Below are positions 1 through 7,739 of a stretch of DNA of 24,000 nt, piece after piece. Source of the DNA: Halodesulfovibrio marinisediminis DSM 17456 (GTDB lineage: Bacteria; Desulfobacterota; Desulfovibrionia; Desulfovibrionales; Desulfovibrionaceae). A model generated the notes under the pieces. It did not search any database and was not told where the DNA came from. It saw only the letters and a list, made by a program, of their open reading frames with translations. How positions within the stretch are numbered: position 1 is the stretch's first letter; each line of letters opens with the position of its first letter. Position numbers and translations under genes: made by a program. The DNA lies in contig NZ_FSRG01000007.1 of NCBI RefSeq assembly GCF_900129975.1, positions 11,908 through 35,907 of the forward strand, in the 5' to 3' direction.

Positions 1-691
1 TTTCGAAGAGATTGATTGCCTCTTCGGGTGGGTTTGAAAAGTCTTCAATGTGCGGAATACATCCGCATACAGAATAGTTTGAAAATGTGGAGATTGCCTC
101 CATGTTTTCCTGCAGCATCGCCTGTGGTGTACGGTGTTCCTTGTTATTCACAAACACTATCCCTGCCGGTTGAACGCCTCGGTGATGCAACGCCTCAATG
201 GAAAGAAGCGTGTGGTTGATTGTGCCAAGTCCGGCTCGTGCTACGAGTATGGGCTTGATCCCGAACCGCTCGACGGCCATTTGCACCATGTCCGCCAACA
301 TGTGTGTACGGCTGAAAGGCACTAACAGTCCTCCAGCAGCTTCTACCACCAGGGTATTATTTTTACGTAAATATGCCAGTTTGCGTAAAAGGTCTTCCAC
401 TTCTACGCTGCTCTGTTCATCACGGGCAGCGTAGAATGGAGCCTTGGGAGCGTTAAAGCAGGCTCCAGTGGCATCGGCAGCAGTCTGATGCACTTCTGGA
501 CAATATTTAAGAACGAAGCTGGCGTCAGCGCCTGCATCGTTCGGGCTAAGGCAGCCTGTTTGCACTGGTTTCCAATAATAAGGCGTGTGCCCCGTTCTTA
601 TCAGGAACCGCATAAGCATCAGGGAAGCAACTGTCTTACCCACATCGGTATCTGTACCGACAACGAAAAATGACGGATTAGGTTCTGTCAT
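1..691 (-). CDS. bioD: dethiobiotin synthetase BioD (3-prime end runs off the window start)
   Basis: Missing from the ORF track because there is no stop before position 1. My minus-strand translation from the ATG at 691-689 reads MTEPNPSFFVVGTDTDVGKTVASLMLMRFL..YWKPVQTG..VVEAAGGLLVP..ARAGLGTINHTLLSIEAL. It contains the GTDTxVGKT P-loop and the EGAGG / LGxINH motifs typical of BioD. The start overlaps the bioF stop (678-680) by 14 nt. Confidence 0.85.
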   Translation of the reverse strand, partial: MTEPNPSFFVVGTDTDVGKTVASLMLMRFLIRTGHTPYYWKPVQTGCLSPNDAGADASFVLKYCPEVHQTAADATGACFNAPKAPFYAARDEQSSVEVEDLLRKLAYLRKNNTLVVEAAGGLLVPFSRTHMLADMVQMAVERFGIKPILVARAGLGTINHTLLSIEALHHRGVQPAGIVFVNNKEHRTPQAMLQENMEAISTFSNYSVCGCIPHIEDFSNPPEEAINLFE

Positions 692-1820
692 ACCACCCCC
701 TGATACTGTTGACGAATGTGTGTACGTCCTCAGTACTGTGCAAGGCTGTCATGCTTACTCGTATGACAGCTTTGTTCATTGGTACGGTCGGATAGCGCGA
801 TGCAAAAGCAAGCACACCGTCTTCCCGCATTTTTTCCGCAATTGTTGCGGCTTTCATTTCATCACTAATCTCAATGGAAACAATGTGCGCGTCACCTTGA
901 ATGGTGAATCCGGCACTCTGTAATTCAGTACGTAATAGTGTACTGACGTGTGCCAGATGTTCGCGCTCCGGTTCCATGTCCGGCAGTTTCCTGAGTAACG
1001 CAGCAGCTGCTGCTGCATGAGCTTCCGGCATCGCCGTGGAATAGATCACAGGCGATGAGAAGTTATGGAAAAATTCTTTGAAGCCCTTGGGCATCAATAT
1101 GAATGCTCCGAACATGCCGAGCGCTTTGCCGAAGGTGCCAACTGCAATGTCTGTGCAGCCGTGAGCGATGCCGGTACCGTTTGCCCCTAGCGCCCCGAAT
1201 GAATGTGCTTCGTCTATTATTCCGAAGAAATTGTACTTTCGGCGTAATATTTCAAAGGCGTGTGTGTCCAGCATGTCACCATCCATGCTGAAGAGAGATT
1301 CCGTGAGTACTACCGGAGAATCTGAATCAGTAGCAGCCAGCTTTCTATCAAGTTGCTTCAGATCGCTGTGGGCAAACCCTCGCAATGTACTTCCCGTTTG
1401 TGGAAGAGCCTGAGCCATACTTGCGTGGATTCGTTTGTCATAAAACAAAGTCTCAGCTGGGCTGCACAGTCCCCATATTATCGAAAGGTTAGCCTGATAT
1501 CCGCTCGGAAGAAACATCGCGTCCTCGTATCCGAAATACTCAGCAAATTGCCGCTCAACGTCTTCTGTGAACTTGCTGTGTCCAGTAACAAGACGGGAGG
1601 AAGTGCCAGAAGGGGCGTGTGTGGTAAAGCATTCCCTAAGCGTTTGTTGCCACTCGGAATTTTGTGACAATCCAAGATAGTCGTTTGAAGCAAAGTTTAT
1701 CAGCTCCTTCCCTTCAACCAACGCACGGCTACCGACCTGCTTCTCAACAGTGACAGGATCGCGGTACAAGCCGGAGTCTTTTCGAACGTTGATAGAGCGT
1801 CGTAGGCGTTCTGTAAGCAT
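678..1820 (-). CDS. bioF: 8-amino-7-oxononanoate synthase BioF (PLP-dependent)
   Basis: 380-aa ORF. The N-terminal region has GLYR and INFASNDYLGL as in the AONS/KBL family, and the PLP-lysine context is GTFGKALG. It lies between the FAS-like genes and bioD in the same operon. Confidence 0.9.
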   Translation of the reverse strand: MLTERLRRSINVRKDSGLYRDPVTVEKQVGSRALVEGKELINFASNDYLGLSQNSEWQQTLRECFTTHAPSGTSSRLVTGHSKFTEDVERQFAEYFGYEDAMFLPSGYQANLSIIWGLCSPAETLFYDKRIHASMAQALPQTGSTLRGFAHSDLKQLDRKLAATDSDSPVVLTESLFSMDGDMLDTHAFEILRRKYNFFGIIDEAHSFGALGANGTGIAHGCTDIAVGTFGKALGMFGAFILMPKGFKEFFHNFSSPVIYSTAMPEAHAAAAAALLRKLPDMEPEREHLAHVSTLLRTELQSAGFTIQGDAHIVSIEISDEMKAATIAEKMREDGVLAFASRYPTVPMNKAVIRVSMTALHSTEDVHTFVNSIRGWYDRT

Positions 1821-2239
1821 TGAAATAACTCTCTATAATGGGTTGTAAGGGAGTCTTTTGAAAACTGTTCACCAAACTCTGTACTTCCAAACAGGAAAGA
1901 TCCTTCTATGTGCAACTGCTGGCAAGTAAATGAGATATCATAGGCAGCTGTGGATTTAGTCATTGCCGTTTGTACAACGATGGTTGTGGCGCAGCCTGAA
2001 AATGTTTCTACAGGAAGCAGTGGGGACTGCTGGATAGAAAGCAAGAAGGCATGTCGGGAAAAGTTCATGCATTTTCTAAAATGTAGACCACCGGTTTGTG
2101 CCATCGCTTCAAGGGCAAGGTATGCAGGAGCGTCTACAAACTCTTTTTCAGCCGTGAGTGTTTCGGCTGCATAGTGCGTAATACTGTCCAACATGATGAA
2201 CCTGTCTACGTCAAAGTGGATGGTTTTGCTGTACTGCAT
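1700..2239 (-). CDS. FabZ/FabA-like hot-dog fold protein DH2 (keeps the LEAMAQ Glu motif, lacks the catalytic His motif)
   Basis: 179-aa ORF whose ATG (2239) directly abuts the KAS stop (2240-2242). DRFIMLDSI and YLALEAMAQTGGLH align by eye with E. coli FabZ FPFLLVDRV and VLILEAMAQATGIL. The position of the FabZ His (HFPxxPxxPG) holds Ala. The last 121 nt overlap bioF in another frame. Confidence 0.7.
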   Translation of the reverse strand: MQYSKTIHFDVDRFIMLDSITHYAAETLTAEKEFVDAPAYLALEAMAQTGGLHFRKCMNFSRHAFLLSIQQSPLLPVETFSGCATTIVVQTAMTKSTAAYDISFTCQQLHIEGSFLFGSTEFGEQFSKDSLTTHYRELFQCLQNAYDALSTFEKTPACTAILSLLRSRSVAVRWLKGRS

Positions 2240-6586: not shown

Positions 6587-7567
6587 TTATAAAACGCCCA
6601 TGCTGGTAAGCATGTTGATGTCGTCTGCCATGTTGCGTCCGCTTGTGGTTAGGTAGTTGCCGATCATGAGACCGTTGGCTCCTGCCATAGGGATGAGTGG
6701 TTGAAATTCGCCGAGTGTGTTTTCGCGTCCGCCTGCAATCAGAATGTCCTGTGTAGGAAGAATGAAGCGATAGACTGCAATGGCGCGAAGTGCTTCTGAT
6801 GGTGCAAGAAGCGGCTGGTTTTCAAGACGGGTACCTTTGACCGGAGTAAGGAAGTTCATCGGGATAGAAGGTACGCCGAGGTCACGCAGGGTACAGGCGA
6901 GTTCAACTCGTTGGTTGCGGTTTTCGCCAAGACCTAATATGCCGCCGGAGCAGACACGAAAACCGACATTAAGCGCGTTTTGTACGGATGCGATATCCTC
7001 ATCATATTCGTGTGTGGTGCAGATGGTAGAGAAGTGCGAACGGGCAGTCTCAAGGTTATGATGGTAACTGGAGAAACCTGCCTGACGTAATCGTTCTGCC
7101 ATATCTGGTGAAAGTTGGCCGAGAGAACCACATACTTTGATGCTGGTCTGGGTGGTAATGGCAAGTGCTGCTTCGCAGACGGTGTCCAGCTCTTTATCAG
7201 AAAGAGCCATGCCGCTGGTAACAATGCCGTACCGTTGTGCGCCGCCTGCTTCTAGTTCTTTTGCACGGGCGAGTAATGTTTCTGGAGCGATCAGTGGATA
7301 AATGGGCGCACCCGTGTCATGGTACTTAGACTGTGAACAGAAGGAACAGTTCTCGCTGCATTTACCTGATTTGGCGTTTACAATACCACAGGTGAATGTC
7401 GCGTTGGTTGTCACAGTAGAGCGGATACGCTGTGCACCTGCAAGAAGATCAAGCGTTGCGCTTTCCGGAAGATTTATCAGCAGTTCAGCATCAGTACGGC
7501 TGATACCTTTTCCTGACTGGACAACCTCTTCGCACAGGGCGTACACAGTTGAAGCACTAGTGGTCAT
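6587..7567 (-). CDS. bioB: biotin synthase BioB (radical SAM)
   Basis: 326-aa ORF with the radical-SAM CxxxCxxC motif (CSENCSFCSQ). YNHNLET-like SYHHNLET and overall BioB length. First gene of the minus-strand bio operon. Confidence 0.93.
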   Translation of the reverse strand: MTTSASTVYALCEEVVQSGKGISRTDAELLINLPESATLDLLAGAQRIRSTVTTNATFTCGIVNAKSGKCSENCSFCSQSKYHDTGAPIYPLIAPETLLARAKELEAGGAQRYGIVTSGMALSDKELDTVCEAALAITTQTSIKVCGSLGQLSPDMAERLRQAGFSSYHHNLETARSHFSTICTTHEYDEDIASVQNALNVGFRVCSGGILGLGENRNQRVELACTLRDLGVPSIPMNFLTPVKGTRLENQPLLAPSEALRAIAVYRFILPTQDILIAGGRENTLGEFQPLIPMAGANGLMIGNYLTTSGRNMADDINMLTSMGVL

Positions 7568-7705
7568 ATGATTTCTCTGAAATAAATGAGTATATTATCC
7601 GGCAATCAGCAGGGAAGCTTTTCCCGTGAACCTGCGTTGGTAGTGATTCGCAGGGCTGGATATTCAATGTTGTTGTTCAGGAAGAACTAGCTGAGAGTAC
7701 TACTA

Positions 7706-7739
7706 TTGTCAACTTTGATAGATGTTGTAAGGTTTACAA
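7706..7739. promoter_or_regulatory. BirA operator (bioO-like inverted repeat)
   Basis: TTGTCAAC-N18-GTTTACAA. The right arm extended to 9 nt is GGTTTACAA, reverse complement TTGTAAACC. The total is 34 bp, the same half-sites and spacing as my recollection of E. coli bioO (TTGTAAACC-N16-GGTTTACAA). It lies in the bioB/birA divergent region, ending 3 nt before the birA Shine-Dalgarno. Confidence 0.75.

Follow-up and report, generated by a model that had tools for sequence, protein, structure and literature searches.

The locus described here raises the question of how the pimeloyl thioester used by BioF is made when a biotin operon carries fatty acid synthesis (FAS)-like genes and none of the known pimelate genes. 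We analyzed a 24,000-nt stretch of the Halodesulfovibrio marinisediminis DSM 17456 genome (contig NZ_FSRG01000007.1 of assembly GCF_900129975.1, positions 11,908 to 35,907 of the forward strand), referred to below as the window. Nine bio and FAS-like genes lie on its minus strand: bioB, bioA, DH1, SDR, an acyl carrier protein (ACP)-like gene, KAS, DH2, bioF and bioD. DH1 and DH2 denote two small hot-dog proteins, SDR a FabG-like short-chain dehydrogenase/reductase, and KAS a ketoacyl-ACP synthase, the condensing enzyme of the set. A first-pass annotation, made from the letters of the DNA alone, had placed five FAS-like genes on one strand between bioA and bioF, and their coordinates, domains and catalytic residues bore this out (Table 1). 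We consider it likely that the five genes constitute a dedicated FAS-like line in which pimeloyl thioester is built on a private carrier protein and passed to BioF without a methyl-ester disguise.

The known routes to pimeloyl thioester are missing from the window, as the first-pass annotation had stated. A survey of the other ten large open reading frames (ORFs) found no BioC, BioH/G/K, BioW, BioI, BioZ or BioE, and the window ORFs include neither a methyltransferase nor an alpha/beta-hydrolase. The 10 kb beyond bioD, read in a second assembly of the species (locus L002), likewise contained no known pimelate-route gene.

This type of cluster is already known, and the window holds another copy of it. 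Rodionov et al. (2004, PMC545781) described five FAS-like genes in the bio operons of Desulfovibrio and proposed a new pimeloyl route, and they placed a BirA site between the operon and a divergent birA. Trotter et al. (2023, PMC10102598) used randomly barcoded transposon sequencing (RB-TnSeq) in D. vulgaris Hildenborough and found ten genes to be specifically important without biotin. Nine of these form the cluster DVU2558-2565, including the unannotated DORF42491, and the tenth is DVU1220. DVU2560 and DORF42491 are FabZ-like, DVU2561 is a reductase, DVU2562 an ACP and DVU2563 a KAS, and each of the five is specifically needed in the absence of biotin (PMC10102598). D. vulgaris has no bioC and no bioH, and the screen returned no gene for glutaryl supply; H. 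spirochaetisodalis appears in the conservation figure of the same study (Fig. S3, PMC10102598). A paper of December 2025 counts BioE as the "fourth" pathway of pimeloyl synthesis and makes no mention of the Desulfovibrio-type cluster.

The reading that the module makes pimelate is thus not new, because it was published in 2004 and received genetic support in 2023, and the novelty assumed by the first-pass annotation does not hold. Its statement that FAS-like genes occur in Desulfovibrio bio clusters was right and understated the evidence, and the biotin-auxotrophy experiment that it proposed has in effect been carried out in a relative, as mutant fitness in D. vulgaris (PMC10102598). Its central proposal, that the module builds the C7 thioester on its own carrier protein, matches the published hypothesis and has this genetic support; the details that it attached to the proposal fared less well, as described below.

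Curated NCBIfam equivalog cutoffs were used to separate housekeeping enzymes from paralogues. KAS scored 310 bits against the FabF model TIGR03150 (cutoff 494), SDR 110 bits against the FabG equivalog (cutoff 298) and DH1 21 bits against FabZ models (cutoffs 113-155). The ACP-like protein reached 32-40 bits against ACP models (cutoffs 66-71) and 20.5 against 20.8 for PP-binding, and DH2 matched no Pfam or NCBIfam model, those for FabZ included. Since the FAS-like proteins all fall below the housekeeping equivalog cutoffs, they are specialized, divergent paralogues.

The catalytic residues of KAS are nevertheless conserved. Its best match in the PDB is a FabF (3o04, 1e-61). The protein was aligned with 120 relatives and with E. 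coli FabF, whose numbering is that of the mature protein plus 1. None of the 120 relatives departs from the triad Cys157-His297-His335, from Lys330 or from the gate residue Phe392. Equally invariant within the family are a P102-N103-x-D105 insertion where FabF has Ile108, Tyr196 at the position of Phe202, Arg187 at Ala193, Lys198 at Ala204 and Asn304 at Gly310. In FabF, the "back gate" of the acyl pocket consists of Ile108 and Phe202, and Gly310 lines the pocket that Phe400 enters on gate opening (bioRxiv 10.1101/2021.02.13.431092). By homology, Arg187 and Lys198 would lie close to this gate. Invariant polar and charged residues at the back gate of KAS would suit a free omega-carboxylate, and Trotter et al. 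(PMC10102598) had guessed at a hydrophobic-to-polar gate for a free-carboxylate substrate.

The carrier and the reductase have kept their functional residues as well. By alignment, Ser37, Asp39 and Glu42 of the ACP-like protein correspond to Ser36, Asp38 and Glu41 of AcpP and are invariant, and the phosphopantetheine serine (Ser37) is thereby retained. All eight ACP-like carriers compared have an insertion of about 45 amino acids ahead of the last helix, which may help to keep the carrier apart from general FAS. In SDR, the tetrad Asn119/Ser147/Tyr160/Lys164 is intact and invariant.

The two hot-dog proteins were examined together. The active site of FabZ is composed of a histidine from one chain (His54 in E. 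coli) and a glutamate from the partner chain (Glu68). DH1 has an invariant H20-F-P-x-x-P-x-x-P-G motif, and in seven loci, with identities down to 31%, the position of Glu68 is filled by His, Asn or Arg and in no case by Glu. DH2 shows the reverse pattern: it keeps the L-E-A-M-A-Q helix, with the glutamate (E44) present in 135 of 135 relatives, while the FabZ histidine motif is deleted and Gly or Ala stands at the position of the FabZ histidine. As DH1 never carries the glutamate and DH2 never the histidine motif, neither protein could complete a canonical site as a homodimer.

When family profiles without a FabZ row in the alignment were compared with the PDB, DH1 matched a FabZ (4i83, E = 4e-6) and DH2 reached only E = 0.17. 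Because the latter is not significant, AlphaFold2 (AF2) structure models were made for both proteins. The DH1 model (predicted local distance difference test score, pLDDT, 78.9) had FabZ structures as its top structural matches, and not 6qsr_A; the precomputed Pfam annotation of DH1 is PF22818, ApeI-like, in every locus. The DH2 model (pLDDT 74.5) has a hot-dog fold, and its top match in the PDB was 6qsr_B, a chain of the ApeI:P dehydratase heterocomplex (E = 3.8e-5, TM score 0.60), followed by FabZ structures. The assignment of DH2 as a hot-dog protein, for which the sequence libraries gave no match, was therefore recovered through its structure model.

The two genes also travel together: across ten loci, both are present in eight and both are missing in two. 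These patterns of residues and the models suggest that DH1 and DH2 probably pair as a heterodimeric dehydratase whose one active site is shared between them, DH1 contributing the histidine and DH2 the glutamate. Rather than two dehydratases, as the labels of the first-pass annotation imply, they appear to hold complementary halves of one FabZ-type active site. An exhaustive profile search found 225 DH2-type clusters (at 50% identity) among 1.84 billion representatives.

Conservation of the cluster was followed outward from the window. The window's DH1, KAS and DH2 are 100% identical to the NCBI proteins of H. marinisediminis. A scan of genome contigs with the KAS protein alone gave one close locus, and remoter loci were reached through protein matches and contig look-ups. 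Collinear clusters occur in the second assembly of the species, in a Desulfovibrionaceae metagenome-assembled genome (MAG; L001), whose KAS is 79% identical, and in H. spirochaetisodalis (L008), whose cluster proteins are 64-72% identical to those of the window. Distant KAS relatives, at 52-56% identity, were found in Syntrophobacteraceae, Desulfobacterales and other Desulfobacterota, and in six of the seven distant contexts KAS lies among bio genes. Four of these loci (L003, L005, L006 and L010) have the order bioA-DH1-SDR-ACP-nitroreductase-KAS-DH2-bioF-bioD. In Ca. Magnetomorum (L009, 7001-8203), an orphan KAS of 52% identity has no bio, ACP, nitroreductase or hot-dog genes within 7 kb; it may be a piece of a fragmented assembly or reflect another use of the enzyme.

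The cluster of this organism offers no candidate for the enoyl reductase. Neither an enoyl reductase nor a nitroreductase gene is present in the 24-kb window, and the 10 kb beyond bioD contain no enoyl reductase either. In six of the seven distant loci (L003-L007 and L010), a nitroreductase-family gene of about 214 codons lies between ACP and KAS. Its product has an RRSIRKY motif of the flavin mononucleotide (FMN) type and no Fe-S motif (for example, L003 7332-7976). The ACP-nitroreductase-KAS group stays together even where SDR is missing (L004) or where DH1, SDR and DH2 are all missing (L007), and the nitroreductase itself is missing from the three Halodesulfovibrio-type clusters. Trotter et al. 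had pointed out that the clusters of other Desulfobacterota include nitroreductase genes, and in D. vulgaris the unlinked nitroreductase-like gene DVU1220 has a biotin-specific phenotype (PMC10102598). Because of this phenotype and of the nitroreductase in six of seven distant loci, the missing enoyl reductase may be a dedicated flavoprotein encoded elsewhere, which is at least as likely as a housekeeping enzyme. The suggestion of the first-pass annotation that it is borrowed from housekeeping FAS is doubtful on the same grounds.

The route can be laid out as follows. Gene content, catalytic residues, the operator, cluster conservation and the genetic requirement in D. vulgaris are established. 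How the chain is primed, how many rounds it takes, the pairing of DH1 with DH2, what the pocket residues do and which enzyme acts as the enoyl reductase are inferred. Housekeeping AcpS and FabD would supply the 123-residue carrier in its holo, malonyl-loaded form. KAS would be primed on a malonyl unit with its free carboxylate intact, held by Arg187, Tyr196, Lys198, Asn103 and Asp105, and would condense this primer with malonyl-carrier in two rounds, from C3 to C5 to C7. In each round SDR would reduce the 3-oxo group, DH1 and DH2 would jointly dehydrate the product as one heterodimer, with the histidine from DH1 and the glutamate from DH2, and enoyl reduction would fall to an unlinked nitroreductase-like flavoprotein of the DVU1220 type or to a housekeeping enoyl reductase. 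BioF, BioA, BioD and BioB would then finish biotin. This three-malonyl route is favored because KAS is of the ACP-primed type and the D. vulgaris screen contained no primer-supply gene.

A more specific form of the proposal, which we put forward tentatively and at somewhat less than even probability, is a methyl-ester-free pimeloyl-carrier synthase with an obligate split-site heterodimer, a carboxylate-holding KAS pocket and the nitroreductase as enoyl reductase. The KAS pocket would in that case spare the malonyl primer from decarboxylation and stop elongation at C7, and the system would be a biochemically distinct fifth pimelate route, confined to anaerobes.

Several points weigh against these proposals. 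A Cys-His-His KAS would be expected to decarboxylate a malonyl primer, and the sequence constrains neither the primer nor the number of rounds. That Arg187 and Lys198 would face the KAS pocket is suggested by homology to FabF and in part by FabF structures. One locus from Desulfobacterales (L004) has no SDR, and another (L007) has only ACP, nitroreductase and KAS beside bioB and bioA; the module is therefore not always self-sufficient. For the dehydratase, comparison of the DH1 and DH2 profiles with hhalign gave no significant match, and the ApeI-like match of DH1 was not recovered in a local Pfam scan. DH2 furthermore has three near-invariant residues with no counterpart in FabZ, His53, Arg55 and His63 (129, 133 and 130 of 135 relatives), which could form an alternative catalytic arrangement; Arg55 might bind the distal carboxylate. 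Finally, a search of the literature by locus tags and pathway terms found no biochemical characterization of any member of the module.

The near-invariant histidines bear on the possibility that DH1 and DH2 are two independent homodimeric dehydratases, for instance one for each elongation round, since His53 and His63 could stand in for the catalytic histidine that DH2 has lost. Both proteins are FabZ-like hot-dog folds by model, and their counterparts in D. vulgaris are each needed separately. We nevertheless regard two homodimers as quite improbable: neither would have a complete canonical FabZ site, a pattern that holds in relatives of as little as about 30% identity; the nearest structural parallel to DH2 comes from a heterocomplex; and the two genes are co-present or co-absent in all ten loci. 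A different objection is that the FAS-like genes might have a product other than pimelate, for example a lipid or a polyketide-like compound, and be mere neighbors of the bio genes. The five proteins do have generic folds of FAS and polyketide synthase (PKS) type, DH1 and DH2 resemble aryl-polyene dehydratases, and one KAS relative, the orphan of L009, has no bio genes nearby. Against this stand the same-strand nesting of the genes between bioA and bioF under a single BirA operator, the conservation of that nesting across orders, and the D. vulgaris mutants, which are sick specifically without biotin (PMC10102598), and we hold a non-pimelate product to be very improbable.

A closer competitor is the BioZ-like scheme that the first-pass annotation had offered as one possibility, in which a C5 dicarboxyl primer (glutaryl-CoA or glutaryl-carrier) is condensed with malonyl-carrier and goes through a single reductive pass. 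BioZ chemistry is established in alpha-proteobacteria, one cycle would suffice and would avoid a malonyl primer that is easily decarboxylated, and the polar, charged pocket of KAS suits a glutaryl primer equally well. The condensing enzyme itself is of the wrong class for this scheme, being of KAS-I/II type (Cys-His-His, with FabF as its best match) and not KAS-III (Cys-His-Asn), and KAS-I/II enzymes are normally primed from ACP and not from CoA. None of the ten contexts inspected contains a glutaryl-forming gene, and the D. vulgaris screen gave only the cluster and DVU1220, with no gene for glutaryl-CoA supply (PMC10102598). A single round from a C5 primer is thus disfavored, and we rate it unlikely; two rounds from a malonyl primer remain the route that we prefer.

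Table 1. Features of the biotin locus in the window, with strand (+, - or. for none) and supporting evidence.
Feature	Coordinates	Strand	Evidence and remarks
bioD, dethiobiotin synthetase	2..691	-	GTDTDVGKT motif; 3' end cut by window edge, ~14 nt missing
bioF, 8-amino-7-oxononanoate synthase	678..1820	-	TIGR00858 best match, 302 bits, under cutoff 426; Pfam Aminotran_1_2
DH2, hot-dog protein, 179 aa	1700..2239	-	AF2 model; core 2239..1802, tail 1801..1700
KAS-I/II-type condensing enzyme, 405 aa	2240..3457	-	Pfam ketoacyl-synt N and C domains
ACP-like carrier, 123 aa	3469..3840	-	Invariant Ser37; ACP models below cutoff
SDR, FabG-like, 253 aa, proposed 3-oxoacyl-carrier reductase	3847..4608	-	Pfam adh_short_C2, 8e-30
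DH1, truncated FabZ/ApeI-like hot-dog protein, 102 aa	4601..4909	-	FabZ models below cutoff; PF22818 (precomputed); AF2 model
Spacer between bioA and DH1, 312 nt	4910..5221	-	Imperfect terminal inverted repeats of ~84 nt
bioA, 7-keto-8-aminopelargonate (KAPA) to 7,8-diaminopelargonate (DAPA) aminotransferase	5222..6577	-	TIGR00508, 542 bits vs cutoff 405
bioB, biotin synthase	6587..7567	-	TIGR00433, 370 bits vs cutoff 225; Pfam Radical_SAM, BATS
BirA operator	7706..7739	.	TTGTCAACT-N16-GGTTTACAA
birA, bifunctional biotin ligase/repressor	7746..8738	+	Pfam HTH_11, BPL_LplA_LipB, BPL_C; NCBIfam birA_ligase, 173 bits vs cutoff 83

Regulation of the operon agrees with the pattern predicted for Desulfovibrio. 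The birA gene is divergent from the bio operon, starts with GTG and encodes a protein with an N-terminal helix-turn-helix (HTH) domain. The exact published BirA consensus of Rodionov et al. (TTGTAAACC-N14/15-GGTTTACAA) has no match in the window. With a relaxed half-site pattern, the sequence listed in Table 1 was the sole match, against an expectation of 0 from shuffled sequence. The site precedes the birA start by 7 nt and the bioB ATG by 139 nt. The relaxed pattern also stands ahead of the bio operon of five related loci (L001, L003, L006, L008 and L010). A BirA operator ahead of the operon, as first annotated, is thereby supported as a unique site between the divergent birA and bioB. A promoter and terminator scan of the window gave results at or below shuffle expectation, and a search of the window at Rfam gathering thresholds and a tRNA search found nothing. 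The best overall explanation, in which we have reasonable confidence, is that the locus is a Desulfovibrio-type biotin operon that BirA represses at a single operator serving the divergent birA as well. At its far end, the truncated bioD has an identical copy in the second assembly that is complete at 234 amino acids and matches PF13500.

The junctions between the genes had been described as tight throughout. This does not apply to bioA and DH1, which are separated by the 312-nt spacer, and at the other end of the module DH2 and bioF overlap by 121 nt. The overlap has a simple origin. The homologous core of DH2 is about 145 amino acids, which is its full length in all relatives, and the protein here has 179. 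Because the TAA stop codon of the relatives is TAC in this genome, the ORF acquires an extra tail of 34 codons that extends into bioF in another frame, and the NCBI annotation has this longer version.

The spacer is framed by inverted-repeat arms at 4912-4995 and 5145-5219, with an exact 12-mer, GCCTCCGGCGGC, at both ends and a hairpin of its own within each arm. Folded as operon RNA, it has a minimum free energy (MFE) of -101.7 kcal/mol (z = -7.8), and its long stem pairs the Shine-Dalgarno sequence of DH1, GGAGG, with a CCUCC just past the bioA stop codon. In other lineages the bioA-DH1 spacing is 8-100 nt. The full element was found only in the same species; a related MAG has only 87 nt of it, adjacent to bioA. 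The spacer has no Rfam match. It looks like either a MITE-type (miniature inverted-repeat transposable element) insertion or an RNA structure for translational coupling or attenuation.

The other large ORFs of the window encode a MatE transporter, an LPG-synthase C-domain protein, GltX, an arginase-family protein and an SSF symporter, and the remaining ones a sigma-54 activator, two CRP-family regulators and a ferredoxin-domain protein. The last of these, a protein of 247 amino acids (20612-21355, minus strand) that begins with a double 4Fe-4S ferredoxin domain and has a Cys-rich C-terminal part of unassigned family, lies between the two CRP/FNR-family regulators (18780-19517 and 21629-22300) and is unrelated to the biotin module. 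It was considered as a homologue of DVU1220, which combines FMN with 4Fe-4S, and was rejected, having no nitroreductase domain. A region of about 1.3 kb (22300-23590) contains no ORF of at least 100 amino acids, no tRNA and no Rfam match, and its short ORFs have no Pfam match.

Compared with known systems, the locus is closest to DVU2558-DVU2565 of D. vulgaris, which has the same nested five-gene set between bioA and bioF, the same divergent birA with a BirA site and, like the window, no nitroreductase-like gene; the likeness is one of gene content and not of protein alignment. H. marinisediminis differs from it in the 312-nt inverted-repeat spacer and the 34-codon tail of DH2. The BioC-BioH pathway of E. 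coli likewise takes a malonyl primer through two FAS-type rounds to pimeloyl-ACP for BioF. There, however, BioC masks the carboxylate as a methyl ester, housekeeping FAS and AcpP do the elongation, and BioH removes the ester, whereas the present module would use a private carrier, KAS, reductase and dehydratase. BioZ resembles the module in being a dedicated bio-cluster condensing enzyme that replaces BioC and BioH and works on a substrate with a free omega-carboxylate; it is a FabH-like KAS-III that takes glutaryl-CoA from lysine catabolism and leaves the rest to housekeeping FAS, in contrast to a KAS-I/II enzyme with partners of its own. The ApeI:ApeP complex (PDB 6qsr) provides a precedent for two small hot-dog proteins in one FAS-like cluster, although sequence identity is only about 13% and the complex belongs to another pathway with other substrates, and the likeness is known here from sequence and models. 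Housekeeping FabF, FabG, FabZ and AcpP share the folds, the Cys-His-His-Lys-Phe gate set, the Asn-Ser-Tyr-Lys tetrad and the phosphopantetheine serine; the module differs from them in the polar back gate of KAS, a FabZ site apparently split over two proteins and the insertion of about 45 residues in the carrier.

The route therefore stands as a published prediction with genetic support, which recent counts of pimelate pathways overlook. To this the present analysis adds residue-level, testable hypotheses: a split dehydratase site, a polar KAS pocket and a nitroreductase as enoyl reductase. The route is oxygen-independent, unlike those of BioI and BioE, and is confined to a small set of anaerobes, given that the DH2 marker family comprises only 225 clusters. 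It would show a type II synthase handling a free dicarboxylate without the disguise provided by BioC and BioH.

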